64,000 nucleotides of DNA from a virus (lineage: Duplodnaviria > Caudoviricetes): positions 69,871 through 133,870 of IMG/VR virus record IMGVR_UViG_3300042900_000746. One strand, 5' to 3'. This document shows, in pieces, positions 13,139 through 64,000 of the stretch (position 1 is its first letter; the number at the start of each line of letters is the position of its first letter). Below the pieces are notes generated by a model. The model was not told the origin of the DNA. It did not search any database and worked only from the letters and a program-made list of their open reading frames with translations. The position numbers and the translations under genes are program-made.

Positions 13139-13687
13139 TTAGAGTTGTCTAACCTCAAGGGCAACAAAGCCTGAAGCTTCGAGCACTTCTTGAGCAATAA
13201 GAGATGGCATACCAGCCATGACTCCAAGTGCTGTTTTTTTGTCGTACTTAGGATAAAGCACGCAAAGTTCTGTGATAGCTTCTTCGTTCCACATGTTAGC
13301 TTCAGCAGAAGTAAGCTGTCCACCCTGGACCAATTGCTCCATCTTCTTAACAACCTGCTTGTATTCAACTCGATTCAGTACTCGCCAAACAATATGCTTA
13401 TCATAAGAAATGGATGTAACGTAAACGTCTCCGTAATGTTGCTTCCATTGTTTAATCATTCCAGCGTTGGGGCCACCGTCCCAAATTTCTACATCATCTG
13501 CCAGATCTTCAATATCTTTTGACTCTTCAACTTCAAGATCGAGATCGTATTCTTCGATTGCTTCCTGAGCTCTTACGTCGATGGCATCTGGATCATCGGT
13601 TGTAACCAATGTGACTGCTTCATCAAAACCTAAATTTTTGATATCCTCTGGGGTATCTCCTATTACTACTTTTCTTTGATTTGTCAT
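13139..13687 (-). CDS. Tail assembly chaperone-like protein
   Basis: Position after the tube genes, acidic composition, paralogy with 12511..13134. Confidence 0.6.
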   Translation of the reverse strand: MTNQRKVVIGDTPEDIKNLGFDEAVTLVTTDDPDAIDVRAQEAIEEYDLDLEVEESKDIEDLADDVEIWDGGPNAGMIKQWKQHYGDVYVTSISYDKHIVWRVLNRVEYKQVVKKMEQLVQGGQLTSAEANMWNEEAITELCVLYPKYDKKTALGVMAGMPSLIAQEVLEASGFVALEVRQL

Positions 13688-13763
13688 ATTAATGTTTCTC
13701 CTTAGTATGTATCAGTACATAATATCATAAAATTACTTTTTTTTCAATTATAAATCACTAAAA

Positions 13764-16272: not shown

Positions 16273-17547
16273 TTATAAGTTAATGGCTACCTGGACTTCG
16301 ATTGTTTTAAGTTCGAAGGCAGGTGTTAAAACGAGGTCAACAATCGCTTTATTTTGGTTGGGAACATACGAAACTGTAAAATCGCTTCCCAATAAAGCAC
16401 CCATGAGCTGCATTCCTCTTAGACCAGAAGTAATTGCTGTTTCCATCGCATTACGAACTTGAATATTTGATGGCTCACCAATAAACTTCTGGCAAACTTG
16501 TCTAATGACAAGAGAAGCTTCGTCAACAATTCTCTTTGTTGACAAACGCGTGTAATCTGATGTTGACTGGCCGAATGTCAAGCCTTCACCAAAAACTGCT
16601 ACTTTATTAAAATTAAGAACAACAGTATTGATGCCCTTTGTACTCAAAGCTTGCTGCTGAGTTCTTGTTGGAGCATAACGAAGAGCCTCAACGTTGTAAA
16701 GTGGCTTGTTAACTACTGAACTATATGAAGGAAGTCTACTCATTGAAGCTGCCAAAAAGGCTGCACCATTTGAATAGCCAAATTGTGTTGTTCCTGATGA
16801 ATAGTTAACTGGCTTGATCTCAGTGGCGATAATGGTGACGTACGGTCCGACTGTCTTCCATGCATCTCCAGAATCTCTGTCTGGCAATCCAGACAAGTTA
16901 ATTTTAGTTGCTATTTGACTTGGAGTCATTCTTTCGTAAGTAGCAGCTCCGCCTTCAGCTTGACTTACCAAGAAAGGCTTAACGCCCATAACGGCTATGC
17001 AAGGGTTTGTGCTTTCTGAAATTTCCTTAGCCTTAACTGCAACCTTATAGGCCCAGTTTGTTGCATAGGCGGTATTGTTGTCGGCGTGGAAACCAAATTC
17101 TCTGTCATCGCTAGGCGTGGCAGTTGCATTCAGCGACCAGTCATTCGGATCTGAGCCACGGCCCCAAGGGATGATAATATCCGGGACTGCTGATTCTGCT
17201 GCAACAAAAGCTGCATCAAAAACAGATCCACCAAAGGTTGAACTTGTTACTGTGCAGAGTGAATGATCGAATATTGTATCGCTTGGAAGCGGAACAACGA
17301 AAATTCTTTCAGCGCCAGCGGTGACCAACTCCACAAATGCGCGGTGTGCATCTGATCCGTTGCCAAATGCGGTAATTGCATCAGCTTCGTTTGATACTCT
17401 AACTATGTCAAGGTCGGGAACTCCACCAGTGCCGTCAGCAGTGCTGCGCTTTGCAATGGTTACAATTCTCGGACCAACAGGTGCGTCTTGTCTCGACACA
17501 CTGTAAAAACGATCTCTTATTAAGGTTGTTACTCCAGGTATAGCCAT
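16273..17547 (-). CDS. Tail sheath protein (424 aa)
   Basis: N-terminal MAIPGV and C-terminal sheath-type pattern (QQALSTKGIN, RLSTKRIVD, FIGEPSN, VDLVLTPAFELKTIEV). Confidence 0.8.
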   Translation of the reverse strand: MAIPGVTTLIRDRFYSVSRQDAPVGPRIVTIAKRSTADGTGGVPDLDIVRVSNEADAITAFGNGSDAHRAFVELVTAGAERIFVVPLPSDTIFDHSLCTVTSSTFGGSVFDAAFVAAESAVPDIIIPWGRGSDPNDWSLNATATPSDDREFGFHADNNTAYATNWAYKVAVKAKEISESTNPCIAVMGVKPFLVSQAEGGAATYERMTPSQIATKINLSGLPDRDSGDAWKTVGPYVTIIATEIKPVNYSSGTTQFGYSNGAAFLAASMSRLPSYSSVVNKPLYNVEALRYAPTRTQQQALSTKGINTVVLNFNKVAVFGEGLTFGQSTSDYTRLSTKRIVDEASLVIRQVCQKFIGEPSNIQVRNAMETAITSGLRGMQLMGALLGSDFTVSYVPNQNKAIVDLVLTPAFELKTIEVQVAINL

Positions 17548-17660
17548 ATTATTTTTAGACCTCCGATTAGGAATCTTTTAGAATCTTCATTTATAGTAAC
17601 AGACAAGTTATAAAAACAACTTCACAAACATTTTATCTGAAGATAAATATATAGGTTTGA

Positions 17661-18557
17661 CTAGTAATTTGGGCTGGCAGATTGTTGTAAGTCAACTATA
17701 TTTATAGTGACATCTTCAAAATTTGGTGTCGCTAATGATTCAACGATACTTCTTTCATATGCCATCCAAGTTCTTGCATCCACTGCGATCTTCTGGATTC
17801 TTTCATTCTTAATTGCAAATGTTTTTTCTGTAGTTAACATATAGGTTACAGTTCTTTTATGCAGGTCTTTTCCATCTCTATTTATTTCAGAATCGGAAAG
17901 TCTTCTAGAATACACTAACTCCGAAGCGCCAGAAGCTTTGAAGACTGGAGTATATTCCAACATAAAATCTTCAAAAGCTTCTATAACTTGATCGGCCAGC
18001 ACCGATGCATCGAGATCGTCTCTAGTTGTTGTAATATTATCATTTTGGAATGTTCCCACTTTTGTGAGAACTGAAAATGAAACTATATTTTGAAATTTTT
18101 GACCATATACTGTTACAGTATTTTCCAATACATTTTGTCTCATTCTAGGCTTTGGCTCTGTAGTATGAGTTTTTCTTAATTCCAAAGAATAAACAATAAT
18201 TGCTGGAAATTCTTCTAAAGCTGTTAATCCAGAACTTGATGACGCTGGCGCAGAAGATATTTCACTAACTTGAGTGCTAGATGTCATTGTATCAGAATAG
18301 GTACTACTAGTCTCTCTATTGATACCACTAGGAAGAATGGGTATCGTAGGATAACTTTCTTCCCATATTTTTTTAACTAAACCTATAAATTCGAGATAAC
18401 TTAGATTGCCAGAATATATTTCTTCTACGCCATTCTCATCCAGTCTTCGGTAGCCTGGAGATTGGAGTACTGAATCTTTTAGTTGACTAGCCCAAATTGG
18501 TTCAGTAAATCTACTTTTTCTTCCGTGAGAAGGAAAGCCTCTATTTATATATGCCAT
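17661..18557 (-). CDS. Putative tail completion/terminator protein
   Basis: Position upstream of the sheath gene; start placed at MAYINRG to avoid overlap. Confidence 0.5.
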   Translation of the reverse strand: MAYINRGFPSHGRKSRFTEPIWASQLKDSVLQSPGYRRLDENGVEEIYSGNLSYLEFIGLVKKIWEESYPTIPILPSGINRETSSTYSDTMTSSTQVSEISSAPASSSSGLTALEEFPAIIVYSLELRKTHTTEPKPRMRQNVLENTVTVYGQKFQNIVSFSVLTKVGTFQNDNITTTRDDLDASVLADQVIEAFEDFMLEYTPVFKASGASELVYSRRLSDSEINRDGKDLHKRTVTYMLTTEKTFAIKNERIQKIAVDARTWMAYERSIVESLATPNFEDVTINIVDLQQSASPNY

Positions 18558-18558
18558 A

Positions 18559-20154
18559 TTAAACTCCTGGTCCTGTTGATAAGGCAAAGTCAATTTTCTT
18601 TAACCCTAGGGCAGAAAGAACTTCTATGTAGAATATTATACTTCCAACAGTGGTACTACTTACTTCTACGTTAAAAGAATAACTAACTATAATTTTATCG
18701 CTTTTTAAAGATTCTAATAAAGATCTTACATCGTCTACTACCTTATCGTATCCTAGTTGACCGATAGCTTTGTACCCATATCCTCTGATTCTGCTTACTA
18801 GAAGAGCTACGAGTCTCATTTGTGCCGCTTTGTGCAGGGTGGATTCTGGATCAGAAAGGGTATACTCATTGGTTAAATAGACTTCAAATGGAACAGATCT
18901 TCTAGTCTTTTTTCCTCTATATATAGTATTGACTCCTATGTCATCTAATCTTTGATATTCAGATTGGGATAAGTCTGATCCATACAATGACATTGCTCCT
19001 GGTATTCTTGTTCTAATGAGACCCATATTTAGTGGTCTTGAGGCGAACATTCCCGCTAGCGATGCTGCTATGGACGAAACGTAAGATGTTTTTATTTGAT
19101 CGTGCTGGTATACAGCTTCACCATATACTGGAATGACAAATCTTCCATTATCAGAAGAAATTTGACCAGTCATATTTATTGTAGTTAATTTATCAGTTAG
19201 GACAGAATTTGCCTCTAATAAATCAATATCTGGAGATGTAACGCCACCACTTCTTGATCCTATTATTCCAATTTGGACATAGCCAGTAGTGTTGTGGAAA
19301 TCAGCGCAATAATCAGCTAACTGGGTTATAAAATCAACTCCACCTGTTTTAATAATGGAAGTTTCTAGTGGAACAATAATATCAATAAAATCTAAATCTT
19401 TAATTATTGAATATGTTTCTTCTAATCTTTCATAATATTTTTCATAAAAAGTATATTCACTGGGTGTGGCGGCGTTTCTGTCAAATAGAGTATTGGAAAT
19501 ATTTCTGTCAGAATATTTATCCACATATTCAGACATGGGAGCTGTTGCGCAAATCATAATATCCCTAGCTCCTGCAGCGTATGCATCAAATACACCTCTT
19601 AGCAGGGGGCTGGAAAGATCTGCCCCAAGAAGATCAATAGCACTTTGCATTGACCTAACATTAACGGGGTTATTAAATTCCATTCCATTTGCGTGGCCAA
19701 TTAATAAAATCGTACTAGTATTATTTGAGTTTAACTGTTCATAACTTGGCTTATAGTTTACTACGGTACTTTTATTTGGGGAAATAACTATTGGACTTAA
19801 AGTCGATACTTCACCTTTAACTTGAAACTTTGCACTTATGTTTAAATTTCCAGTGGAGTTAGTTGTTTGTGCAATAACAGAATAAATTCCCTCATATAAT
19901 TTATCTGGAATTTGGTAATAAAAAGTAAATTCTTTAGAATTACTTTTTTCAATATAAATAGGTCCTGAAGGATTTTCTTCTTGAATTAAATAAGAATATG
20001 GACCATCTATTACTGGACCGCTACCATACTCTCCTCTAATAACAGAAAAATATATGTCTAATGGTGTTGAATTGGCGGTTGGGTCATATATATTTCCTTC
20101 TGAAATAAATATAAATTTAAATTGTACCGACTGACCTCTGCTAACTATTAACAT
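18559..20154 (-). CDS. Second sheath-like protein with an extra N-terminal beta-rich domain
   Basis: C-terminal part has a sheath-like pattern (YQRLDDIGVN, QMRLVALLVSRIR, IEVLSALGLKKIDF); start placed at MLIVSRG. Confidence 0.6.
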   Translation of the reverse strand: MLIVSRGQSVQFKFIFISEGNIYDPTANSTPLDIYFSVIRGEYGSGPVIDGPYSYLIQEENPSGPIYIEKSNSKEFTFYYQIPDKLYEGIYSVIAQTTNSTGNLNISAKFQVKGEVSTLSPIVISPNKSTVVNYKPSYEQLNSNNTSTILLIGHANGMEFNNPVNVRSMQSAIDLLGADLSSPLLRGVFDAYAAGARDIMICATAPMSEYVDKYSDRNISNTLFDRNAATPSEYTFYEKYYERLEETYSIIKDLDFIDIIVPLETSIIKTGGVDFITQLADYCADFHNTTGYVQIGIIGSRSGGVTSPDIDLLEANSVLTDKLTTINMTGQISSDNGRFVIPVYGEAVYQHDQIKTSYVSSIAASLAGMFASRPLNMGLIRTRIPGAMSLYGSDLSQSEYQRLDDIGVNTIYRGKKTRRSVPFEVYLTNEYTLSDPESTLHKAAQMRLVALLVSRIRGYGYKAIGQLGYDKVVDDVRSLLESLKSDKIIVSYSFNVEVSSTTVGSIIFYIEVLSALGLKKIDFALSTGPGV

Positions 20155-52074: not shown

Positions 52075-52220
52075 ATATAAGTATATAGGATAATATTATT
52101 ATATATTAACATATAAGAATATATTATTATATGTAAACATATAAGTATATAGTAAAGGGGGGAAGGGGGGAAGGGGGGGTTATGGCTAGCTTATCACATG
52201 AGATCAAGTTGCGTCTAGCT

Positions 52221-52382
52221 TCAATCATTTTTCTTATAATCTTCTATGCTAGGATGTTCTTCTATGCAAGGGCCCGCAAAAGACCAGTACTTCAGCAAAT
52301 CAATAGGTCTGTTGAATCTTTTATTTAATAAATACAATGCCAACTGGAATTCTTCTTTTTGTTGTTCTTGCGACTTGCTCAT
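52221..52382 (-). CDS. 53-aa hypothetical protein (MSKSQEQQKEEF...)
   Basis: Manually translated; AAGGAG RBS upstream of ATG. Confidence 0.55.
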   Translation of the reverse strand: MSKSQEQQKEEFQLALYLLNKRFNRPIDLLKYWSFAGPCIEEHPSIEDYKKND

Positions 52383-52425
52383 TTAATCTCCTTAAGATAT
52401 AATATATATATCAATTATACCATTA

Positions 52426-52743
52426 TTGAAAGGTTATTACCAGGTGGAATATCCCCAGCATAACGAAACAAATTCTATTCGCAACAAGACACCAAAACCC
52501 GTGGACATTAAAGAAGTGAATCGCGCATTAATGGTCTTACGCGAGAACTCAATGTCAATGCTCGATCTAATCGAAAAAGATCTTTACGATTTCTATTCAA
52601 CTGACATAGAAGTCATCAAGTTTGTTGATAAAGAACTTGTCAAAAAGATTCTTCAGTTCAAGCAAGATATCAAGAACATTGTTGTATACTCTAAGAACCT
52701 GCAGATTATGCACGAAGAACAAGGAAGATTATTCTATGACTGA
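52426..52743 (+). CDS. Hypothetical protein upstream of recA
   Basis: Open frame overlapping the recA start; true start uncertain. Confidence 0.55.
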   Translation: MKGYYQVEYPQHNETNSIRNKTPKPVDIKEVNRALMVLRENSMSMLDLIEKDLYDFYSTDIEVIKFVDKELVKKILQFKQDIKNIVVYSKNLQIMHEEQGRLFYD

Positions 52744-55704: not shown

Positions 55705-55760
55705 GAAGGTGGTTCCTCAGGATCTTATGATTCTGGGGAACTTCCTTTTTTGAGGATAGG
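55705..55760 (+). terminator. Repeat copy 1 (terminator plus putative promoter)
   Basis: GTTCCTCAGGATC-TTAT-GATTCTGGGGAAC TTCCTTTTTT GAGGATAGG. Confidence 0.8.
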
Positions 55761-55842
55761 TCATTGTCCTTTAGTAAGGTTCGCCATGGGCCAACGGATT
55801 CACTCGCGTTAAAGAGTAGACATGGAAGATGGTTTTACCATT

Positions 55843-55902
55843 CGTAATAATCACGTTCAATACGTTAAGTTGAACAAAGACATGTTTCTAGGAGGAATCA
55901 TG
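55843..55902 (+). promoter_or_regulatory. Structured 5' leader, copy 1
   Basis: Near-identical to 58161..58220, with a compensatory change in the GTTCA(A/G)...(T/C)TGAAC stem. Confidence 0.6.
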
Positions 55903-56127
55903 TTTGAAGTAATCAAGAAGTACAAGTACGCACTACTCATCTTGTTATTGGTATTCACACCAACAAGTAAGGTAGTGTTCGCGTTGTTCGGATTTCTTTC
56001 CGGATTCGTCAACTGGGGTCTTTTGATCCTGGTTGGCCTTGTTGTCTTGGGCATTAAGCTCAATAACAAGTTTGACCTGAGGGCAATGCTCTCAAGTCAG
56101 TCAGATGAGGAAGACTCCTTTATCTGA
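55900..56127 (+). CDS. Small membrane protein (75 aa, MFEVIKKYKY...)
   Basis: AGGAGG RBS; two hydrophobic segments. Confidence 0.75.
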   Translation: MFEVIKKYKYALLILLLVFTPTSKVVFALFGFLSGFVNWGLLILVGLVVLGIKLNNKFDLRAMLSSQSDEEDSFI

Positions 56128-56156
56128 TTAAGTAGGATGATGACCCATCCTGCTTA

Positions 56157-56216
56157 GAAGAAGTTGTTTCCCCTGGGGCATTTGCCTTGGGGGAAACTTC
56201 TTTTTTTGAGGATAGG
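56157..56216 (+). terminator. Repeat copy 2
   Basis: GTTTCCCCTGGGGCA-TT-TGCCTTGGGGGAAAC TTCTTTTTTT GAGGATAGG. Confidence 0.8.
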
Positions 56217-56255
56217 GGAAAGGCCCCTAACTCATTCCTTTGAAAGGGGATTATT

Positions 56256-56354
56256 ATGTCAGATAACATGTTCTTTATGATTGGCAACACCATATTTGTG
56301 GTGTGCTGCATAATGGCGATTGCGCCGTTATTCTTCTATAACAAGAAGAAGTAA
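56256..56354 (+). CDS. 32-aa membrane peptide (MSDNMFFMIGNTIFVVCCIMAIAPLFFYNKKK)
   Basis: Manually translated; GAAAGGGG RBS; fills the space between repeat copies 2 and 3. Confidence 0.6.
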   Translation: MSDNMFFMIGNTIFVVCCIMAIAPLFFYNKKK

Positions 56355-56359
56355 TTTAG

Positions 56360-56417
56360 AAAAAGTTGTTTCCCTGGGGTCTTCGGATCCTGGGGAAACT
56401 TCTTTTTTTGAGGATAG
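56360..56417 (+). terminator. Repeat copy 3
   Basis: GTTTCCCTGGGGTC-TTCG-GATCCTGGGGAAAC TTCTTTTTTT GAGGATAG; C(UUCG)G tetraloop. Confidence 0.85.
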
Positions 56418-56448
56418 ATCAATGGGATCAGTCCAGAAGGGGGTAACC

Positions 56449-56688
56449 ATGAAAATGGGAATCCACAAATTCAAGACAATAAAGGGTAATACCTTTGTTG
56501 TCGAAATCGGTCGCAGCATGACTTATGGTCATGTTGAGGCCCCGAATGGAGATTGGGTCGAGTTTTACGGCTCAATATCCATTCCTGAATTGGATGAGCA
56601 GGATGGTCAGACCATCATCGTGTTCACCCAGTTTGAATCGCAACGCCTTCGTGGCATTGCGATTCGTCCAGTCATTACCTTAGGGTAG
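56449..56688 (+). CDS. Hypothetical protein (79 aa, MKMGIHKFK...)
   Basis: GAAGGGGG RBS; start placed downstream of the repeat. Confidence 0.7.
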   Translation: MKMGIHKFKTIKGNTFVVEIGRSMTYGHVEAPNGDWVEFYGSISIPELDEQDGQTIIVFTQFESQRLRGIAIRPVITLG

Positions 56689-56741
56689 TGACTGGACAAA
56701 GGGCAGCGTTTTACCTTGCATACTAGCAAAGACGCATTATA

Positions 56742-56797
56742 GAAGAAGTTGTTCCCGGGGATTTAGGTCCCTGGGAACTTCTTTTTTTGAGGATAGG
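56742..56797 (+). terminator. Repeat copy 4
   Basis: GTTCCCGGGGAT-TTAG-GTCCCTGGGAAC TTCTTTTTTT GAGGATAGG. Confidence 0.8.
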
Positions 56798-56867
56798 CCA
56801 ACCGCGCCAGTCCAAGGGCATGAGTCACAGCCCTGCCAACACCGGCAAAGTGACAAAGGAGGTCGAG

Positions 56868-57158
56868 ATGAAACTCGATATCCAATGGTGGGCAACCACC
56901 AACAATTCCATTGTCGGGTTAATTCCCGTCAGTGGAAAGACTGTTGTGATCCGGGAGGGTCATGACGGTCACTTCACCGGCTACCAGGCCGATGAAGTCA
57001 CCCTGCAGCACCTAACTCATCAGGACAATATCTTTGCCCTGTATGCAGTTGTGCGCGCGGGGCAAAGGGTTGAAGAGATTCGTCTCCTCAATCCTTTATT
57101 CCTCGATCTACTGGGAATTGACCCAGTTGAGATCGTGGACTCTACTACCTTTATCTGA
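56868..57158 (+). CDS. Hypothetical protein (96 aa, MKLDIQWW...)
   Basis: AAAGGAGGT RBS. Confidence 0.7.
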   Translation: MKLDIQWWATTNNSIVGLIPVSGKTVVIREGHDGHFTGYQADEVTLQHLTHQDNIFALYAVVRAGQRVEEIRLLNPLFLDLLGIDPVEIVDSTTFI

Positions 57159-57170
57159 GGTAGTGGGGGA

Positions 57171-57227
57171 AGAAAGTTGTTCCTCGGGATTTTCGGATTC
57201 CGGGGAACTTCTTTTTTTGAGGATAGG
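57171..57227 (+). terminator. Repeat copy 5
   Basis: GTTCCTCGGGATT-TTCG-GATTCCGGGGAAC TTCTTTTTTT GAGGATAGG. Confidence 0.8.
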
Positions 57228-57268
57228 CAACAAGCCCGTCCATAATACCTCGGAAAGGAGGTGAAACA

Positions 57269-57550
57269 ATGAAGGCAAAGCCAGCAAGGCGAGTCTACGT
57301 CGCAAGGCGTATTCTCGTTGCGTTGATTGTTGTTCTTCTGTTCTTTGTTGCTCGCGGAATCCACCGTGAAGCAACAGAGCCCGCTTACACATGTGATGTG
57401 TCTGCGGCGTTCGTAGAGCAGGGGGATTCAATCTGGACTTTGTTAGAAGATCACTGTGAAGGCGATCTGACTTCCGCAAGATACTTTGTTACCGGTATCT
57501 ACGGAACGAAGGTTGTTCCTGGTCAGTTGATTCTTTTAACAAAGGACTGA
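57269..57550 (+). CDS. Membrane-anchored LysM-like protein (93 aa)
   Basis: Basic N-terminus, TM helix ILVALIVVLLFFVA, then VEQGDSIWTL...VVPGQLILL LysM-type motif; AAAGGAGGT RBS. Confidence 0.7.
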   Translation: MKAKPARRVYVARRILVALIVVLLFFVARGIHREATEPAYTCDVSAAFVEQGDSIWTLLEDHCEGDLTSARYFVTGIYGTKVVPGQLILLTKD

Positions 57551-57562
57551 TCACAATCAACC

Positions 57563-57621
57563 AAACTGCCACGACACGGGTGGCCAAGAAGTAGTGACTC
57601 TTGGGAACAGAAAAATCACTA
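57563..57621 (+). ncRNA. Candidate structured 3' RNA element (two hairpins plus pseudoknot), copy A
   Basis: GCCAC/GTGGC stem, CAAGA/TCTTG stem, GGAACAGAA, and loop TAGTGA pairing with downstream TCACTA. Confidence 0.5.
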
Positions 57622-57680
57622 AAGAGGTTGTTTCCCTGGGATCTTCGGATCCTGGGGAAACTTCCTTTTTTTGGGATAGG
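57622..57680 (+). terminator. Repeat copy 6
   Basis: GTTTCCCTGGGATC-TTCG-GATCCTGGGGAAAC TTCCTTTTTTT GGGATAGG. Confidence 0.8.
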
Positions 57681-57721
57681 CATTCGGCCTCCCTATATCA
57701 CCCCAGAAAGGAGGTGAAAAC

Positions 57722-57961
57722 ATGGGTGTCTCCATCTTCCTCGGAAACGAGGATCGAGCCTCTTGGACGTATGGTCATTTTGACCATGTCCTTCGCGCAC
57801 TAGGTCTTCCTAGTCCGGAGGAGTCCGATTGGGCTGGATCGATGGACCCAGAACATCTCGTTCAGAATCTCCACAAGATTGTGAATGCAGATGATCGGGA
57901 ATTCATAGCGGAAATCGCTATCGAGTCCCTGAGGTCTGGATCCTCGATCTCCTGGTCATAA
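57722..57961 (+). CDS. Hypothetical protein (79 aa)
   Basis: AAAGGAGGTG RBS. Confidence 0.75.
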   Translation: MGVSIFLGNEDRASWTYGHFDHVLRALGLPSPEESDWAGSMDPEHLVQNLHKIVNADDREFIAEIAIESLRSGSSISWS

Positions 57962-57973
57962 CCAGGCGATTGG

Positions 57974-58030
57974 ACACCGCCACTTGTAAGAGAGTGGCCG
58001 AGTTGGCGCAACTTGGGAACAGAAGCGCTA
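57974..58030 (+). ncRNA. Candidate structured 3' RNA element, copy B
   Basis: GCCACT/AGTGGC stem, CGAGTT/AACTTG stem, GGAACAGAA, and loop GGCGC pairing with GCGCT. Confidence 0.5.
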
Positions 58031-58090
58031 AAGAGGTTGTTTCCTCTGGGATTTTCGAATCCTGGAGGAAACTTCCTTTTTTGAGGATAG
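58031..58090 (+). terminator. Repeat copy 7
   Basis: GTTTCCTCTGGGATT-TTCG-AATCCTGGAGGAAAC TTCCTTTTTT GAGGATAG. Confidence 0.8.
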
Positions 58091-58160
58091 ACCATTGTCC
58101 TTACTGGTAGCCAGAATGCAGGCATAAAACCAGTCCGGGTGACGCCGGTTCATCAGTCAA

Positions 58161-58220
58161 CGTAATAATCACGTTCAGTACGTTAAGCTGAACAAAGGCA
58201 TGTTTCTTGGAGGGATCATG
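58161..58220 (+). promoter_or_regulatory. Structured 5' leader, copy 2
   Basis: Near-identical to 55843..55902 and ends at the RBS and ATG. Confidence 0.6.
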
Positions 58221-58778
58221 TCACATAGTAAAACAGCAGCAGAGTTTGCTGCAAAGGTCCACGAAAGGTTGGCTCCTGCAAGGGAAGCCTACTATGAGTG
58301 GCTCAAAGGGGTGTACCAGTTATGGAATACCCAGTTCTTCAGCAAGAAGTCGGTCACCCAGGATGTCCTGGACCGTTCCGACAAGGGTGGGGATGAAGAT
58401 CCCTGGATGACATTTCAGAGCACACTCTGTACTGTAATGTCAGAGAAGTACCCGCGATTTGGGCTTCTCATGAATCCCGATGAAAACGGTCAGTCCATTC
58501 TGGATGGATTCATCCTGGATTTGGATGAGCCAGGCGACTGGTACATCAAAGCCGAAACAAACCCAGAGACTGGGATCACTTGGGTGGCTTTGTTTGTAGA
58601 AGACAAGGACCCATATGACCCGTGGGCAGGACAAATGTGGAATATCCCATTCCACTTCAACGTGAAGTTCACGCAATTTGGGTACCAGGTCCTTGGGGCT
58701 TGGTCTAACGGGTATAAGAGTGATGAAGAATGGGAGGTGTGGGGTGAGCCTGAGTTTTCAGGCTACCAGTTTCCCTGA
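58218..58778 (+). CDS. Acidic Trp-rich hypothetical protein (186 aa, MSHSKTAA...)
   Basis: GGAGGG RBS. Confidence 0.75.
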   Translation: MSHSKTAAEFAAKVHERLAPAREAYYEWLKGVYQLWNTQFFSKKSVTQDVLDRSDKGGDEDPWMTFQSTLCTVMSEKYPRFGLLMNPDENGQSILDGFILDLDEPGDWYIKAETNPETGITWVALFVEDKDPYDPWAGQMWNIPFHFNVKFTQFGYQVLGAWSNGYKSDEEWEVWGEPEFSGYQFP

Positions 58779-58798
58779 GTTAATTATTATTAGTAGTT

Positions 58799-58863
58799 AA
58801 GTTGTTCCCCGGGGATTGGCAGAAATGCTGGTCCTCGGGGAATCTTCTTTTTTTGACAATAGG
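58799..58863 (+). terminator. Repeat copy 8 (variant TTGACAATAGG)
   Basis: TTCCCCGGGGATTGGCA-GAAA-TGCTGGTCCTCGGGGAA hairpin plus T tract. Confidence 0.75.
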
Positions 58864-58897
58864 CCCCCGAACAACCGAAGGGGTCGGAAAGGTTGTC

Positions 58898-59215
58898 ATG
58901 TTGGTAAACTTAACTCCTCACGAGGTAACACTCGTGAATGATCAGGGTGATATTACCCTGGTCATCAAGCCGGAGGGAACTCCTGCTCGGTGCGCAGTGA
59001 AGCGAGAGATCGCATTCATTGCGGACGGTATTAGTGTCAATAAGAGTGTGTTCGGAGAGGTCGTTGGCCTTCCGGAGCCCATTGAAGGCACTTGGTATAT
59101 TGTTAGCCGGATTGTAGCAGAAGCTGCACAACGTTCAGATCTTCTGGTTCCGGATGAAACAGTTCGGAACCAAGAAGGTCAGATTGTTGGTTGTAAGTCA
59201 TTTGCAACAATCTGA
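58898..59215 (+). CDS. Phage hypothetical protein with NLTPH motif (105 aa)
   Basis: MLVNLTPHEV, GLPEP, YIVSRIVA, DLLVP and VRNQEGQIVGC pattern that I recall from a widespread phage family of unknown function. Confidence 0.75.
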   Translation: MLVNLTPHEVTLVNDQGDITLVIKPEGTPARCAVKREIAFIADGISVNKSVFGEVVGLPEPIEGTWYIVSRIVAEAAQRSDLLVPDETVRNQEGQIVGCKSFATI

Positions 59216-59232
59216 GTTAATTATTAACAATT

Positions 59233-59288
59233 GAGTTGTTTCCCCTGGGGTCTTTGGGCCCTGGGGGAAACTTCTTTTTTGAGGATAG
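59233..59288 (+). terminator. Repeat copy 9
   Basis: GTTTCCCCTGGGGTC-TTTG-GGCCCTGGGGGAAAC TTCTTTTTT GAGGATAG. Confidence 0.8.
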
Positions 59289-59334
59289 ACCATTGGGGTC
59301 AGTCCACAACTCACCAACGAAAGGAGGTGAAATA

Positions 59335-59511
59335 ATGGCTCCCACCTGGGACTCGGTTGGTGTTTGTTCGCTTTGCGGACAGGACATAACTGTAGAAGAG
59401 GTGGTGGATCACTGGTACAAGCTCCCTACAGGGGAACTTGGAACAACGGTTCACCGAACCAGGGATGAATCCATGCCGCTCGTTCACGGGCAGTGCATCG
59501 ATTCTCTCTGA
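59335..59511 (+). CDS. 58-aa Cys/His zinc-binding protein (MAPTWDSVGVCSLC...HGQC)
   Basis: AAAGGAGGTG RBS; CxxC and HxxC. Confidence 0.65.
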   Translation: MAPTWDSVGVCSLCGQDITVEEVVDHWYKLPTGELGTTVHRTRDESMPLVHGQCIDSL

Positions 59512-59525
59512 GACCCTCGTCCCAC

Positions 59526-59586
59526 AAACCGCTACTTGAAAGAGAGTAGCCGGGGTGAACACTCCTACCCTGGGAACAGAATGGAG
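59526..59586 (+). ncRNA. Candidate structured 3' RNA element, copy C
   Basis: GCTACT/AGTAGC stem, CGGGGT/ACCCTG stem, GGAACAGAA, and loop CTCC pairing with GGAG. Confidence 0.5.
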
Positions 59587-59593
59587 ACAACTC

Positions 59594-59656
59594 GTCCCTA
59601 CCCTGGGGATCTTCGGATCCCTGGGGTAGAGACCCTACCTTTTTTTTGAGGATAGG
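59594..59656 (+). terminator. Repeat copy 10
   Basis: CTACCCTGGGGATC-TTCG-GATCCCTGGGGTAG, then CCTTTTTTTT GAGGATAGG. Confidence 0.75.
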
Positions 59657-59685
59657 CCACCCAGGCCAGTCCAGGAAAGGAAACC

Positions 59686-59850
59686 ATGGCTCTTAACAAA
59701 ACCATGGTTGCTATCCACATCGCCTTGTTCTTGGCGATGTTCGGTGTAATTACAATGGCTAGCCCAGGCTGGTTCATTGTGTTTATGCTGACTGTCATAA
59801 CGGGTTATTGCGTTATTGGCGGTTGGATCGCAGCAAAAAGCGAGGACTGA
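59686..59850 (+). CDS. 54-aa two-helix membrane protein (MALNKTMVAIHIALF...)
   Basis: Manually translated; GAAAGGA RBS; fills the space between repeat copies 10 and 11. Confidence 0.65.
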   Translation: MALNKTMVAIHIALFLAMFGVITMASPGWFIVFMLTVITGYCVIGGWIAAKSED

Positions 59851-59875
59851 CAAACCTCGTTGTCCATGAAACCGC

Positions 59876-59937
59876 TCCTTACCCTGGGGATCTTAGGATC
59901 TCTGGGGTAAGGACCCTACCCTTTTTTTGAGGATAGG
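59876..59937 (+). terminator. Repeat copy 11
   Basis: TCCTTACCCTGGGGATC-TTAG-GATCTCTGGGGTAAGGA, then CCCTTTTTTT GAGGATAGG. Confidence 0.75.
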
Positions 59938-59966
59938 CCACTGGGGCCAGTCCACGAAAGGGAAAT

Positions 59967-60269
59967 ATGAAAGTCAAGAACAAGTGGTGGGTCTCATACA
60001 AGATCCGCCAAGTTGCCAAAGCCCGTGAAAGGGCAATGGTCAACCCAGCCACCGTCAAGCAGCTATGCTTCATCGCATTCCTGCTCGAGTTCACAATCGT
60101 CAATGCCGAAGAGGCAAAGACCATTAAGACAATGGTCCACAATGGAGTGGATTTCTACTGGGCCAGCAAGACCATCAAGTACCTGCAACAGAAGCCTTAC
60201 CGCTTCACATTTGCGGAGTACAAAGTCAAGAATGCCAATTGGGACTACGCTAATAAGCGTTGGTTCTGA
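59967..60269 (+). CDS. Basic hypothetical protein (100 aa)
   Basis: GAAAGGGA RBS; ATG 30 nt after the repeat. Confidence 0.7.
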   Translation: MKVKNKWWVSYKIRQVAKARERAMVNPATVKQLCFIAFLLEFTIVNAEEAKTIKTMVHNGVDFYWASKTIKYLQQKPYRFTFAEYKVKNANWDYANKRWF

Positions 60270-60292
60270 TAGTAGATAAGTAAAAAAAAAGT

Positions 60293-60343
60293 AAGGTGCA
60301 GATCCTCTCGTTTGGGATCTGTGCCTTCTTTTTTTGGCATAGG
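60293..60343 (+). terminator. Repeat copy 12 (variant TTGGCATAGG)
   Basis: AAGGTGCAGATCCT...GGGATCTGTGCCTT hairpin plus T tract. Confidence 0.7.
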
Positions 60344-60402
60344 CGTTAGGCCTCTAGCTACAGTTAACTAAATCTGTTGGAAAATTAGTAAGAAAGGAAA
60401 TC

Positions 60403-60666
60403 ATGTCAGTTAATGGACCATGGGATGAAGATCCTATGTGGGTTCCGGATCTTGAAGATTCGGAGCTTGCTAATACATGTTTCAGGTGTCAAGAATTGGA
60501 AGCTGAATTGGAATCATGGAAGCTCACCGCTTCTATGTGGATGGCGGAGGCTGAAGCGCAAGCGGAGTCTGACTTGGCACGCTTTGAACTTCAAGAGCAG
60601 TACATGCGCCAACAAGAAAAGGAAGCTGAAAGAAAGAGAAGGGAATACGGCAAACCAAGTAACTAA
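60403..60666 (+). CDS. Coiled-coil hypothetical protein (87 aa)
   Basis: GAAAGGA RBS; CxxC followed by a Glu-rich helix. Confidence 0.7.
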   Translation: MSVNGPWDEDPMWVPDLEDSELANTCFRCQELEAELESWKLTASMWMAEAEAQAESDLARFELQEQYMRQQEKEAERKRREYGKPSN

Positions 60667-60681
60667 GTAAGTAAGTAAGTA

Positions 60682-60737
60682 GAAGGATTGTTCCCGGGGA
60701 TTTCGGTCCTCGGGAACTTCCTTTTTTTGAGGATAGG
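60682..60737 (+). terminator. Repeat copy 13
   Basis: GTTCCCGGGGAT-TTCG-GTCCTCGGGAAC TTCCTTTTTTT GAGGATAGG. Confidence 0.8.
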
Positions 60738-60766
60738 CCACTGGGGTCAGTCCAAGAAAGGAAATC

Positions 60767-61258
60767 ATGTCAGTTAATAATCAATTCCGGCAAAGGCTGG
60801 ATGTGATCTCGAAAGTAGAGATTGTATCTGGCTGCTTGGAGATTACTTCAAGCAACGCTGCAATATTACTTGCAGGACCACTGACGTATGGACAATACAT
60901 TAGTGTGTTTTCGGGTAAGAAGTATTCGTTTGTTGGAACATCGCAAGATGGCGCTATCATCGATGCATTTATGCACGACGGTAGTGCCCGTGACAATGGT
61001 GGGTATGGCGGCGACGCTTTTGAACTCACGATGAATGATGGATCTCACCGAGTTTTGGTCGGTCCATGGTCTAGCCGACCATCAGTCCATAGCGTTAACA
61101 GTGGAATTTCTTTCACGGAAGTCCGAGTTAACGGTAGGCTGGCTTACTTTTCTCAGGCATTCATTGCGGCAATTGTTCACGAATTCAACATCAATGCAAC
61201 AATGACCGTACGAGTTGATGAAGACGGTGAGATATATCTTGAGTTAGTAAGTAAATAA
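60767..61258 (+). CDS. Hypothetical protein (163 aa)
   Basis: GAAAGGA RBS; GGYGG and GPWSS motifs. Confidence 0.75.
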   Translation: MSVNNQFRQRLDVISKVEIVSGCLEITSSNAAILLAGPLTYGQYISVFSGKKYSFVGTSQDGAIIDAFMHDGSARDNGGYGGDAFELTMNDGSHRVLVGPWSSRPSVHSVNSGISFTEVRVNGRLAYFSQAFIAAIVHEFNINATMTVRVDEDGEIYLELVSK

Positions 61259-61278
61259 GTAAGTAAGTAAAGTAAGAC

Positions 61279-61330
61279 GAGGTAGTCCCTGGGGAGAAAT
61301 CCCTGGGGACTTTCCTTTTTTTGCCAATAA
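61279..61330 (+). terminator. Repeat copy 14 (degenerate, TTGCCAATAA)
   Basis: AGTCCCTGGGGA-GAAA-TCCCTGGGGACT hairpin plus T tract. Confidence 0.75.
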
Positions 61331-61427
61331 ATCGTTGGCCCTTAAACAGGAGGTAGAAATGTAATGAATACCATTGTTAATACTCAATTGCTTAATTTAG
61401 TAATAATAGACCCTTCTCTACCCCCCG

Positions 61428-61474
61428 CCTAGGAGGATAGCCATGGACCTTAGGTTCCTTTTTTTGACGATAGG
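61428..61474 (+). promoter_or_regulatory. Repeat copy 15 (weak hairpin, TTTTTTTGACGATAGG) upstream of the RNA polymerase-like gene
   Basis: Core motif retained and followed by CCATTGGCCTTTAGT, as in copies 1 and 7. Confidence 0.6.
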
Positions 61475-61563
61475 CCATTGGCCTTTAGTCACACGTGAGG
61501 TTCCACGTCAGGGCCAACAGTTTGTGTGTATCTGTACAAAAACACACAGAAAGGGAGGGAGAG

Positions 61564-63921
61564 ATGCCGTATTTCCATGGCATTGTGGTCCTCGCTGGAA
61601 GGTGGCTTCGGCTGCTGACTGGTGCGGCTCACGTCCCGGGTACCAACATCAAAGAAGAGTTTCAGGGAGGACAATACGTCCCAGCGTTCCTGGAGCACTT
61701 CTGGGGTGGGAAGTACCGCGTCGAGGTGCGTAAGCTGTTCAGCCGTAAGGTTGGATCAGTGGAAAGCGCACCAGCGGTGACCAATAAGGAGCTGTTCTCT
61801 AGCGAAGTAATTCGTTGGAGCAACTCCTCGGACCAGTACATGTTGCGCATTAAGGGCAATGATGGCTGGCTTGCTAGCTTCAAGGAAATCGGTCTTCTGA
61901 TCGGTAACTCAAAGAAGATGAGCAAGAGGTTAGTGGAGCTCGTGCGCATGTCGTGCATGTGGCTTCATATACCTGAAGAGGAAGCCCTTGAGGTTGACGT
62001 CATCGATCACAAAGCGTTGGGCATGCCTGATGAGTTTGTGGACGGTGCGACGTTCATCACCCGTGGTTTGGCCATCAAGTGCGTGAAGTCGAATACTTCG
62101 GCAACACGTGCTTGGAGGGCCAAGATGATCTGGGACATTCGCAATGGCAATCTTGTCGTTGTGCAGTTCCGGATGCTCTGTGCACTGGGAGAGATCAAAG
62201 GTAATGCTGTGATCACTCCTCGTCGCCAGATGCGAGGCTACGAAGTTCGGACATTTGCTCCGAATATCAAGGCTGAGATCAAGACCACAGGATGGCAATG
62301 GGTCACATTGGAGCCGTCTTACGGGACGATTCCGGTGAAGTCGGACGATCTGACACATTCCATTTACTGGGATGTTAAGGGTCTGTATGACCACGACTCA
62401 CTCCTGGCATGCCTGGAATCCTCTTTGAAGCAATTCAAGGAGGACTTGGTCGCTGGCAAACGCTCTGAGTGGATGGAGAAGCTCGCTGAAAATAGCGGGA
62501 ATATCCTACACGAGGAGTCAGAGGTAAAGTATGCAAAGGATCGTGGCCTAGTTGGCAGGATTCAGCATGCGGTTGCTCAACTTAGCAAGTTGGGTGTACC
62601 TCTACACGCCAGTCAAACCCTGATGTTCCTCTCGGTCAATGGTTTGCGAAAGCAGCTGTTGGGCGACAATCGTCAGGGTGAGGTATGGACAGACAAGTCT
62701 CGTCACTGGTTTCCAGTGTCGTGGGCTTATGCTGCCCATGTCTATACCAAGGAAGTCTTGGAAATCGGTGGGTTTAAGATGCCCGCTGGTAACCATGGCT
62801 TCTTCCATGAGGCTACCCACAGCTTCGTGGTACCTGGCCAGTTCTTGAAGGATAACTTCGAGAACTGGGGAGGCCCGGACCTAGATGACACAGTTAAGGT
62901 GCATGTGCGCCGTGTGTTGGATAGTAAGGGCAAGGTCAAGTTGATGGGAATTGTCATGCGCAATCCGAATGATTTCGGTGAGTATGCGATGATTCCGATT
63001 AAGGAGACCGGACCGGTATTCCACGACTATGGTGCTGAGCCCCCGCTGGTGGATCTGCAGGAACTATCTAGTAAGGTTCCGCAGTTTACTAAGCTGAAGA
63101 AGCACCTGAACATCGGATCACTTCCGGCGATCACTAATCCACGTAAGCGTGGTGACGTGTTCTCGTTGGAGGATGAGTCGGCTGTTCGGCTTGCATCACA
63201 AGCTTTTCCACCAGGAATGGGCGGAACGGTCATCCCAAAGATGATCTGGTACGCTCAGTTCGGGAAGCCCATTGAGGAGTTGGTTGCAACTAACGAAGAC
63301 ATCGTTGATGTTCTTCAGCAGGGGCAAGCTTCTCTGGAGGATGTGCAGTTGATCAAGCAATGGATCGACAACACATTCACCACAATGGGTGAAAGGCTCA
63401 ACTGGGAAATGGACCGCTTCTGGTTCATGACCCGGATGCCAGCACCATTGGCAGAGGTGTGGGAAACCTCATCCGAGGAAGCATCGCCTTGGGTCACACT
63501 CCATAAGGAGCGTGAGAACCTTGTGCGTCAGTACATTAAGGAAATGACGGATTGGCTGAATAGTCAAGTCGTTATGCCTGAAGTGCTGGAGCAGATCAAC
63601 TGGACTCCAGAAGAGCGTGCAAACGCTTGGAAGAAACTCCAGAAGATTAAAGAGGTTCATCAAGCAGCTCGAAACAGTAGTCTCACCTGGTGCGACTACT
63701 TTGTAGAGCTGATGACCAAGAGTGATGAAGAGTTTGGTGAAGAACGTACTGATCGTAAGATCTTATGTTTAGCTCACCAAGCTATCCTCGCGAAGGCTCA
63801 AACGCCAGGAGCCAACCATGACCAGTGGTTATTCTCGTTCAACGCTAAGAGCGAAATACAACCGTACATGTTCTATGTACGTGCTTTGAAGCGTGTTCAA
63901 GACGGGACTTACAACTGGTAA
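61564..63921 (+). CDS. Putative single-subunit two-barrel (QDE-1/YonO-like) RNA polymerase, ~785 aa
   Basis: FVDGATFI (62035-62058) resembles RdRP FSDGxGxI; QFRM...GEIKG (62164-62202) resembles QIRxxGxKG; GGPDLDD (62869-62889) resembles GGDLDGD; MRNP (62956-62967); GGGAGG RBS before ATG 61564. Confidence 0.7.
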   Translation: MPYFHGIVVLAGRWLRLLTGAAHVPGTNIKEEFQGGQYVPAFLEHFWGGKYRVEVRKLFSRKVGSVESAPAVTNKELFSSEVIRWSNSSDQYMLRIKGNDGWLASFKEIGLLIGNSKKMSKRLVELVRMSCMWLHIPEEEALEVDVIDHKALGMPDEFVDGATFITRGLAIKCVKSNTSATRAWRAKMIWDIRNGNLVVVQFRMLCALGEIKGNAVITPRRQMRGYEVRTFAPNIKAEIKTTGWQWVTLEPSYGTIPVKSDDLTHSIYWDVKGLYDHDSLLACLESSLKQFKEDLVAGKRSEWMEKLAENSGNILHEESEVKYAKDRGLVGRIQHAVAQLSKLGVPLHASQTLMFLSVNGLRKQLLGDNRQGEVWTDKSRHWFPVSWAYAAHVYTKEVLEIGGFKMPAGNHGFFHEATHSFVVPGQFLKDNFENWGGPDLDDTVKVHVRRVLDSKGKVKLMGIVMRNPNDFGEYAMIPIKETGPVFHDYGAEPPLVDLQELSSKVPQFTKLKKHLNIGSLPAITNPRKRGDVFSLEDESAVRLASQAFPPGMGGTVIPKMIWYAQFGKPIEELVATNEDIVDVLQQGQASLEDVQLIKQWIDNTFTTMGERLNWEMDRFWFMTRMPAPLAEVWETSSEEASPWVTLHKERENLVRQYIKEMTDWLNSQVVMPEVLEQINWTPEERANAWKKLQKIKEVHQAARNSSLTWCDYFVELMTKSDEEFGEERTDRKILCLAHQAILAKAQTPGANHDQWLFSFNAKSEIQPYMFYVRALKRVQDGTYNW

Positions 63922-63949
63922 CCAGTCACTAAAGGTGACACCAATGTAG

Positions 63950-63981
63950 CCTCAGGGGTGGGAGAAATCTCACCTCTGAGG
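63950..63981 (+). terminator. Hairpin downstream of the polymerase-like gene
   Basis: CCTCAGGGGTGGGA-GAAA-TCTCACCTCTGAGG; no clear T tract inside the window. Confidence 0.45.
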
Positions 63982-64000
63982 TGAATTAGTAGTTGTATTG

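Follow-up and report, generated by a model that had tools for sequence, protein, structure and literature searches.

Single-chain relatives of cellular RNA polymerase (RNAP) are rare, and YonO, gp66 of phi14:2 (a crAss-like phage), and gp64 and gp96 of the Thermus phage P23-45 have each shown which parts of the enzyme can be dispensed with. According to the work on P23-45 (Chaban et al. 2024, PMC10770324), the virion RNAP gp96, which is fused to the tape measure, transcribes the pre-early genes, including the gene for a paralogous non-virion RNAP, and this second enzyme, gp64, then handles transcription of the early genes and of some of the middle ones (PMC10770324); structures are available for gp64 (PDB 8F72) and for gp62 of phage P74-26 (PDB 8F5M). 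YonO, encoded by the Bacillus prophage SPbeta, is a single-chain relative of the multisubunit RNAPs that transcribes phage DNA (Forrest et al. 2017, PMC5467207). The signature of the two-barrel superfamily is given as D-x-D-x-D in two articles (PMC7824862, PMC10770324). The subject of the present analysis is a gene for a 785-amino-acid (aa) protein at the end of a 64,000-nucleotide (nt) stretch of DNA from an uncultured virus (Duplodnaviria; Caudoviricetes; positions 69,871 to 133,870 of the IMG/VR record IMGVR_UViG_3300042900_000746), hereafter called the window. The protein is predicted to be a single-chain two-barrel RNAP of an unannotated family carried by ~200-kb lake-water phages, and the gene probably encodes an active DNA-dependent transcriptase that is made early, as the second step of a polymerase relay.

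The window forms the final 64 kb of a contig of 133,870 bp, which is 63% complete as estimated by CheckV. The open reading frame (ORF) begins with an ATG at 61564 and extends to 63921 on the plus strand, within a frame that is open over 61495–63921, and this bears out the gene of about 785 aa that the first-pass annotation had placed at 61564–63921. The sequence AAAGGGAGGGAGAG lies directly upstream of the ATG, and the N-termini of the homologues agree with this start by their shared M-x-(F/Y)-FHGI beginning.

An AlphaFold2 model of the protein, built on a 113-sequence alignment of the family, has a predicted local distance difference test score (pLDDT) of 94.3 and a predicted template modelling score (pTM) of 0.91. 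When the PDB was searched with Foldseek, all 17 matches with E ≤ 0.001 were two-barrel RNAPs, including maize RDR2 (E 1.6e-6), QDE-1 (about 1e-6 to 1e-5), and P23-45 gp64 (3e-4). Structural comparison with VIA-align gave 16 RNAP rows with Z from 13.5 to 7.6, spanning residues 1–780. RDR2 reached Z 13.5 (575 aligned residues, root-mean-square deviation 6.4), with further values of 12.5 and 11.2, and QDE-1 about 10; the phage RNAPs gp64 (Z 10.3, 462 aligned), gp62 (10.0), and gp96 (7.8) were also found, and all lower rows among those listed (Z ≤ 5.9) were generic double-psi beta-barrel domains, with Z of 5–6, at residues 130–252. In BFVD, two “uncharacterized” proteins of uncultured Caudovirales (template modelling scores 0.91 and 0.72) were followed by P23-45 gp64. 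No right-hand polymerase occurred among the Foldseek and VIA-align matches of the 785-aa model. The first-pass annotation had proposed structure prediction as a check and named a lack of nucleotidyl-transfer activity and of a double-psi beta-barrel fold as what would speak against it; two-barrel RNAPs turned out to be the only full-length matches, and the model assigns the two-barrel (double-psi beta-barrel) RNAP fold to the 785-aa protein with high confidence.

Such a fold leaves the template to be considered. An RNA-dependent RNA polymerase (RdRP) that acts on RNA of the phage or the host, for instance to produce antisense or double-stranded RNA, would agree with the top fold matches and with the ESM Atlas neighbours, one of which is a cluster named putative RdRP (0.94) and another a cluster with the Pfam RdRP domain in 70% of its members (0.94). 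This role is nevertheless considered very improbable, since the phage members characterised in the literature consulted, YonO on the one hand and P23-45 gp64 and gp96 on the other (PMC10770324 for the latter two), are DNA-dependent, crAss gp66 is titled “DNA-dependent” (PDB 6VR4), QDE-1 itself also takes DNA templates (PMC9508822), and DNA promoters are indicated by the motif arrays described below and by the paralogue located in the particle-gene region.

The family alignment, which reaches down to ~18% identity, reveals a small set of residues invariant in all 113 aligned members: K121, R122, G161, K212, D439, D441, D442, R466, P468, and D582. The conserved blocks are VQxRxLxxxGxIKGN (203–214), HGGPDLDDT (435–443), and RNPNDFGE (466–473), and further conserved positions are K118/K121/R122, D160-G161, R203...K212 (IKGN), K236-x-E238, and G472-E473. 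K212 in IKGN (compare GNKG in E. coli beta) is accompanied by K236, present in at least 90% of the sequences; the basic residues of beta with which this pair would be compared are K1065 and K1073. The metal loop reads G-G-P-D439-L-D441-D442-T, i.e., DxDD, which is one residue short of D-x-D-x-D, and the full signature is absent from the 785-aa protein. Its sole invariant R-x-P, R466-N-P468 (IVMRNP), stands 27 residues after D439, so that in sequence order no invariant R-x-P precedes the metal loop, whereas R425 of E. coli beta′ (VLLNRAP) lies 35 residues before D460 (DFDGD) and R288 of P23-45 gp64 (IFNRRP) 38 residues before D326 (DYDGD). In the secondary-structure string, a single short strand takes the place of the two in the canonical barrel, and the loop is followed by two additional strands, which in the model fits a catalytic barrel whose completing strands are encoded in an unusual order. 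Alternative hhalign alignments against the gp64 family, inspected for an off-diagonal R-x-P match, gave a probability of 0.9%.

To judge from the alignment, the conserved set would correspond to the needs of such an enzyme: the first barrel supplies basic residues, and the second contributes an acidic metal loop and an Arg-x-Pro strand. The “RdRP/YonO-like motifs” of the first-pass annotation thus hold in part: the conserved blocks are real, but they are not plainly those of YonO or an RdRP, given the lack of a Pfam RdRP match, the DxDD loop, and the R-x-P placed after it. The altered loop and the displaced R-x-P might also mark a catalytically dead or repurposed two-barrel protein, such as a DNA-binding or structural factor. 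However, the 113 very divergent sequences all share the three Asp, the Arg-x-Pro, and the Lys/Arg of the first barrel, and these residues recur in the paralogous family, which is typical of a working site and makes a dead enzyme the least probable of all the explanations weighed here.

Searches by sequence place the family apart. On the 785-aa protein, Pfam gave no family at E ≤ 1, PHROGs and phmmer against the PDB gave no match, and neither Pfam nor PHROGs detected a toprim or AEP primase catalytic domain; no match to the polymerase gene came from 50,697 phage records searched by tblastn and megablast. A 41-member profile run against the PDB produced coiled-coil noise only (best E 0.066), and Pfam on 41 diverse family members yielded three stray single hits, with PF05183 (RdRP) in none. 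The same PF05183 model found nothing at E ≤ 10 in the contig, while its control was positive in B. subtilis. By hhalign, the family had no link to gp64 alone and a probability of 0.9% against five gp64 relatives, and no relative was found with two peptide patterns in 185,579 species genomes of GTDB. The family itself comprises 130 clusters at 90% identity, many on 100–216 kb contigs and unnamed or hypothetical, and 133 representatives at 50% identity; in the databases searched, any family name given was “hypothetical” or “uncharacterized”. At least 23 lake-water runs carry the stretch with the polymerase gene. No account of the family or of a DxDD two-barrel polymerase was found in the literature, although the supplementary alignments of PMC10770324, which cover 23 RNAP families and belong to the part of that source outside the portion available, may contain it.

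A second copy of the polymerase core is present in the same contig. When its 279 ORFs were searched with the family hidden Markov model (HMM), a single ORF beyond the polymerase gene was retrieved, of 1622 aa (E 6e-6), in which residues 473–744 contain KPEL, GGFDLDDK, and RQPSGPEE in the same order as in the 785-aa protein. Twenty-five homologues of this ORF keep KxxKR, DG, R..G..K, KxE, GGFDLDDK, and RQPxGxE, and hhalign aligns the two families over 270 columns with a probability of 95.9% (E 6.4e-9). The 1622-aa ORF adjoins ORFs of 2212 aa (window 5855–12493, minus strand) and 3728 aa (contig 59205–70391, minus strand, beyond the window start), in a minus-strand region shared with virion and packaging genes (for a virion structural protein and for the large terminase). 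In each of the five relatives' records containing the 785-aa family, the 1622-aa family is found too, all four records that are at least 90% complete included. The model of the 1622-aa protein is mediocre (pLDDT 72), and its VIA-align matches to QDE-1 and RDR2 (Z 5.4–6.2 over 443–532 residues) lean in the expected direction but are too weak to stand alone. On the strength of the sequence relationship, its paralogous core could be the enzyme that switches the 785-aa gene on. DLDD strings also occur in the 3728-aa and 2212-aa ORFs (GGDLDDGW at residue 1800, RPDLDDYF at residue 2105), where the family HMM has no hit; they may be there by chance.

The surroundings of the polymerase gene are those of a repeat array. 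The exact 16-mer TTTTTTTGACGATAGG at 61459–61474 on the plus strand ends 90 nt 5′ of the ATG, in line with the earlier observation of a repeat core about 90 nt before the start. With up to three mismatches, it has 13 matches in the window against 0.94 expected, a number reached by none of 100 shuffles; 12 of the 13 are on the plus strand within 55745–61474, the copy of the polymerase gene being the last of these, and the thirteenth, at 38710, looks like chance. Throughout the contig, exact GAGGATAG occurs 11 times on the plus strand, always within contig 125.6–131.3 kb, and three times on the other strand. Every copy of this element, called box 1, forms the end of a hairpin rich in GC and followed by a T-run, so that the repeat combines a terminator with a short box. 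Terminator-like sites number 37 against 9.0 expected in the 54.5–64 kb part of the window; of the 14 strongest, the plus strand carries 13. The array is not enriched in sigma-70-like promoters (9 against 10.7 expected), and Pfam assigned no family to any of the seven cassette ORFs tested. The box before the polymerase gene opens a small palindrome, GGCCATTGGCC, when folded as a hairpin, and its variant GACGATAGG is identical in L003, a 95%-identical relative on a 196.5-kb contig; a second box-like sequence, GAGGATAGCCA, near 61431–61441, is missing from L003. The terminator upstream of the gene (Table 1) is predicted to insulate it against read-through, and the possession of its own terminator–promoter-like unit within an array of small orphan genes fits early expression of the polymerase.

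Two observations concern the repeat unit as such. The GAGGATAGG box, in its copies at window 55752–60760, forms the 5′ half of a hairpin GGAU-A-NNNN-loop-NNNN-A-GUCC, whose inner stem covaries among copies (GGCC/GGCC, GACC/GGUC, GAUC/GAUC, GGC/GCC); the element may be a DNA hairpin promoter or a 5′ RNA stem-loop. Moreover, in lake-water contigs of other runs, cassettes are joined or replaced with the repeat units as the exact junctions (window 55770–59309), for example, from 55770 to 59278, skipping 3507 nt, with loose ends at 59278, 59309, and 60736. Because the contigs of other runs switch cassettes precisely there, the small genes appear to be shuffled at terminator–box units.

The leader of the polymerase gene, 90 nt in length, is three times as long as those of the other cassettes and contains a hairpin (Table 1) that is found at the same place in L003 with one pair changed. 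In nine relatives that are more distant, the corresponding position is occupied by a 5-pair hairpin; 90.9% of the cells are paired, and four of the five pairs differ on both sides. Its covariation score of 0.633 compares with 0.298 for shuffles and is reached by 0/500 of them; slid partners give at most 0.10, a control that flatters the hairpin because the structure was derived from the same sequences. Taken as a whole, the 110-nt leader is no better folded than shuffled sequences (z −1.18), so that only the local hairpin is supported. The hairpin is a candidate control site for the synthesis of the polymerase itself.

Since both the contig and the window end 79 nt 3′ of the polymerase stop codon, the end of the array is not readable from the window, and relatives have to be consulted. 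In L003, the upstream box and leader are conserved, and two more box units lie 3′ of the polymerase gene, one of them before a YpsA-SLOG gene. Among 26 loci with 19 distinct upstream regions, a T-run followed by a box of the same type was found 58–193 nt before the match start in 14 regions, using a regular expression written after the boxes had been seen; the box types are ATGGGTAGA, ATGGATAGA, ATGGCTAGA, and GCGCCTAGG. The five regions lacking a box are L014 and four N-terminal-fusion forms. Where 6 kb of sequence beyond the polymerase gene was available in relatives, it contained no further box.

It is there that a second motif begins. The exact 10-mer AAAAGAAGGG is present in 16 of 17 loci, and all of its 58 hits are downstream of the polymerase gene and on the same strand; from the 26 loci, this count omitted L011 (the contig of L003), seven with upstream regions duplicating examined loci, L032, and L036. 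The hits are intergenic, 20–75 nt before start codons, and the array starts 0.1–2 kb after the polymerase gene and runs for ~13 kb on its strand. It was seen in L003 (14415–19271), downstream in L012, L018, L020, L023–L025, L031, and L033, and in G003–G005. In the near-complete genomes G003–G006, 19 of 26 hits belong to the downstream block (three of the four genomes): within 14 kb downstream on the gene's strand there are 8, 5, 6, and 0 hits, respectively, and 2, 3, 1, and 1 elsewhere. The reversed pattern, used as a control, gave 0–2 hits per strand. AAAAGAAGGG is constant across polymerases only 36% identical, whereas box 1 varies by clade. The contig under study has no AAAAGAAGGG hit because it ends before that region. 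As the box 1 units stop and the AAAAGAAGGG array begins at the polymerase gene in the relatives, the gene marks a switch between motif regimes.

This layout can be read in another way, namely that the transcriptase recognises its own GAGGATAGG-type box in a positive feedback, the array being its own regulon and the first transcripts being supplied by another polymerase. The box stands before the gene itself, here and in 14 of 19 distinct relatives; the copy of the gene is the conserved variant GACGATAGG, both here and in L003, as an autoregulated site might be; and the leader hairpin is conserved. We regard such self-reading as unlikely, because the first transcript needs a maker and sigma-70-like promoters show no enrichment in the array, because the box differs by clade (GAGGATAGG, ATGGGTAGA, GCGCCTAGG) and the constant AAAAGAAGGG would better suit the well-conserved 785-aa enzyme, and because in most relatives the gene is where the array ends.

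A third motif characterises the remainder of the genome. The genes of contig 1–122 kb are on the minus strand, and a plus-strand block fills contig 122.4–133.9 kb. In the orientation of the minus-strand genes, (T)TACTAT(A/T) has 49 hits, 15 of them in the intergenic 4.9% of the contig, against 30 hits with one intergenic in the opposite orientation. It lies 23–117 nt upstream of many minus-strand genes of both the replication and the structural regions (for example, at window 17598, 25637, 29288, 32079, and 52154). A sigma-like protein is encoded as well (phrog_351, E 3.5e-8; Pfam Sigma70_r4_2 exactly at the cut-off, 25.7 bits).

The associations of the polymerase with other protein domains bring in replication and repair. 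The distant members P0105, P0124, P0125, and P0132 carry N-terminal PIF1-like helicase and/or NADAR domains, the helicase being fused in P0124, P0125, and P0132 (E 1e-20 to 1e-36) and NADAR in P0105 and P0125. P0102 and P0109–P0120 contain a GTGSRS...ISGMAEGFDE block that is SLOG/DprA-like by eye, on which Pfam gave nothing in P0109 and P0113; in L003, the YpsA-SLOG gene (L003 13458–14222) lies 1.1 kb downstream of the polymerase gene. These associations may link the polymerase to the handling of ADP-ribose or DNA lesions. It is conceivable, then, that a polymerase of the same fold serves replication or repair, making primers or RNA on single-stranded DNA beside a helicase. The helicase and NADAR fusions agree with this, as do the UvsX-like recombinase encoded in the same plus-strand block, the YpsA/DprA-like SLOG protein that follows the gene in L003 and is apparently fused in others (by alignment, with no Pfam call), and the promoter-free start of QDE-1 and RDR2 on single-stranded templates, as worded in the titles of the respective reports. 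On the other hand, the contig has a primase homologue of its own (phrog_16345, E 3.6e-24), whose gene adjoins that of a DnaB-like helicase; the 785-aa form and its close relatives lack the helicase domain, and neither PF05970 (PIF1) nor PF08275 (DnaG_N) matched in the records of three relatives, which are incomplete and do not include L003. Besides, the position of the gene at the boundary of two promoter-like arrays and the paralogue in the particle-gene region fit transcription and not priming. A role in replication or repair is accordingly held to be quite unlikely.

The reading favoured here, that of an early DNA-dependent transcriptase, agrees in part with the first-pass annotation, which had proposed an early non-virion RNAP activated by the virion enzyme or autoregulated, and it can be put as a sequence of steps. 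The paralogous core within the 1622-aa protein would enter the cell with the DNA and transcribe the plus-strand cassettes, each with one unit of terminator hairpin, T-run, and GAGGATAGG-type box. From the unit at 61459–61474, behind the strong terminator and followed by the structured 90-nt leader, the 785-aa enzyme would be made, and it would act as the non-virion DNA-dependent transcriptase of the next gene class, most likely the genes preceded by AAAAGAAGGG. The minus-strand TACTAT(A/T) boxes might be read by the 785-aa enzyme or by the host polymerase with the phage sigma-like protein, and the last gene class might fall to the host polymerase with phage sigma. A need for such an enzyme is suggested by the lack of matches to T7-like, Rpb1, and Rpb2 families in the contig and by the array's lack of enrichment in sigma-70-like promoters. 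The exact assignment of promoters to enzymes is less secure than the transcriptase role itself. A more far-reaching version, to be taken as tentative and rather doubtful, would have the family as a deep undescribed branch with a rewired barrel (a loop shortened to D-x-D-D, with the nucleotide-contacting R-x-P strand after it) and a virion/non-virion pair throughout a clade of ~200-kb freshwater phages, and the gene as the switch point of a three-stage relay, in which TAG-type boxes would be read by the injected enzyme, AAAAGAAGGG by the 785-aa enzyme, and TACTAT(A/T) by the host polymerase with phage sigma.

Several points weigh against an early DNA-dependent transcriptase. The nearest solved structures are RNA-dependent enzymes, and sequence methods (Pfam, PHROGs, PDB, and hhalign) tie the family to no known RNAP. 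Catalysis could differ or be lost, because DxDxD is absent and R-x-P is misplaced. The fold of the 1622-aa protein is weakly supported, with crAss gp66 as the best Foldseek match at E 0.085 and none at E ≤ 0.001. The pairing of polymerases with motifs is pure inference, and the AAAAGAAGGG array is seen in relatives and not in the contig itself. The PIF1-helicase fusions of distant members fit replication or repair better than promoter-driven transcription. Finally, since the contig represents 63% of the genome, other polymerases may exist; within it, neither PF00623 and PF00562 (Rpb1 and Rpb2) nor PF00940 (T7-like RNAP) gave a match, the control genomes being silent for the last model too.

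Table 1. Positions, in the window, of the polymerase gene, the elements around it, and its paralogue.
Feature	Position	Strand	Remarks
Coding sequence, candidate single-chain two-barrel RNAP	61564–63921	+	First barrel at about residues 130–252, second at about 385–480
T-run and box 1 variant, TTTTTTT GACGATAGG	61459–61474	+	Promoter-like unit belonging to the polymerase gene; ends 90 nt 5′ of the ATG
Hairpin resembling an intrinsic terminator	61284–61311	+	Strong; 12 pairs, then TTCCTTTTTT; closes the preceding cassette (ORF 60767–61258)
Weak 5-pair hairpin	61445–61457	+	Directly 5′ of the T-run of the polymerase gene's own box
Leader hairpin, 9 pairs	61521–61550	+	In the 90-nt leader; ends at the ribosome-binding site (fold)
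Hairpin without T-run	63950–63981	+	3′ of the stop codon; contig ends 19 nt further; unflagged by the terminator scan
Eleven more terminator and box 1 units (hairpin, T7, GAGGATAGG)	55745–60737	+	Flank small orphan ORFs
1622-aa ORF, candidate virion-borne polymerase	987–5855	−	Residues 473–744 (window 3624–4439) are the polymerase-core paralogue

Some other features of the contig deserve mention. The genes for the sigma-like protein, the primase homologue, and the DnaB-like helicase are outside the window, at contig 13413–14273, 20247–21449, and 23044–24507, all on the minus strand. Near them, a 1107-aa ORF (contig 16725–20048) contains a DIDLDFDD stretch, which we assume to be typical of the PHP domains of PolIII-alpha. 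Between the two strand blocks, the divergent region at window 52075–52621 has a G-run, GGGGGGAAGGGGGGAAGGGGGGG, beside AT-rich imperfect repeats of the TATATAAGTATAT type, and it may be an origin or control region. The G+C content is 47–51% in the cassette array and the polymerase gene (window 56001–64000) against 31–46% in the rest of the window. DNA contigs from two other lake runs extend 185 and 243 nt past the window end, and many contigs (L014, L015, L017, L019, L029, L030, and L032, as well as the one studied here) break ~0.1–2.2 kb downstream of the polymerase gene, which suggests that assembly stops there from repeats or strain variation. In one riverine metatranscriptome run, short contigs correspond to 57302–57602, 62556–62735 (with eight differences), and 63288–63491; these are not evidence of transcription because such libraries can contain DNA and the contigs lack starts.

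Single-chain two-barrel phage RNAPs and the pairing of virion with non-virion enzymes are already known from YonO, crAss gp66, and P23-45. New here are the abundant unannotated family with its DxDD loop and displaced R-x-P, and the layout of two arrays around the gene. An active enzyme would show that even the active-site geometry most conserved in biology can be wired differently. From the short and sharply delimited motif arrays, TAG-type box followed by AAAAGAAGGG, candidate promoters would be at hand for a transcription system that is new, small, and orthogonal. Should the relay be true, the strategy in which an injected polymerase makes a second polymerase would extend from one Thermus phage to a large group of environmental phages, the family being common in lake metagenomes.

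How the lake-phage enzyme stands with respect to the known systems may be seen from a comparison with each of them. Like YonO, phi14:2 gp66 (PDB 6VR4) is a phage single-chain relative of multisubunit RNAPs that transcribes phage DNA; unlike the enzymes listed above as matches, YonO and gp66 are absent among the Foldseek, VIA-align, and BFVD matches of the 785-aa model, and the crAss enzyme carries DFDxD where the lake-phage enzyme has DxDD. RDR2 (PDB 7W82, 7W84, and 7EU1) and QDE-1 (2J7N and 7Y7P-T) are the best whole-chain structural matches. The lake-phage enzyme shares with them a QxR...G.IKG-type first-barrel block and a GGxDLD- loop start, which we take to resemble RDR motifs. It differs from these members of Pfam PF05183 in the lack of a Pfam RdRP match, in DxDD instead of DxDGD, and in the order of motifs; it also lacks the N-terminal 370–480 residues of RDR2 and QDE-1 and is encoded by a DNA phage.

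In phage T7, the polymerase gene, gene 1, comes last in the block expressed first, and just downstream the next class has its first promoters; in the relatives, the lake-phage gene likewise stands where the box 1 units stop and AAAAGAAGGG begins. T7 RNAP has a right-hand fold, and the first block of T7 is read by the host RNAP and not by an injected phage enzyme.

P23-45 differs from the lake phage in several respects. Its gp64 has no detectable sequence similarity to the 785-aa protein (phmmer against the PDB; hhalign probability 0.9%) and keeps the canonical order NRRP ... DYDGD, whereas the lake-phage enzyme has DLDD and R466 27 residues after D439. With 616 aa, gp64 is a smaller characterised two-barrel RNAP than the 785-aa enzyme, and the “minimal size” claimed in the first-pass annotation has to be given up. 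The hosts and phages are also unrelated, a ~200-kb lake-water phage on the one side and an 84-kb Thermus phage on the other. Nevertheless, gp64 is a phage single-chain two-barrel RNAP with a full-length fold match (Z 10.3), and in P23-45 its gene is among those expressed first, an order that in the lake phage is inferred. Both phages would combine a small enzyme with a paralogous core in a giant protein of the particle region, a likeness that for P23-45 is drawn from the published work and for the lake phage from its gene content.

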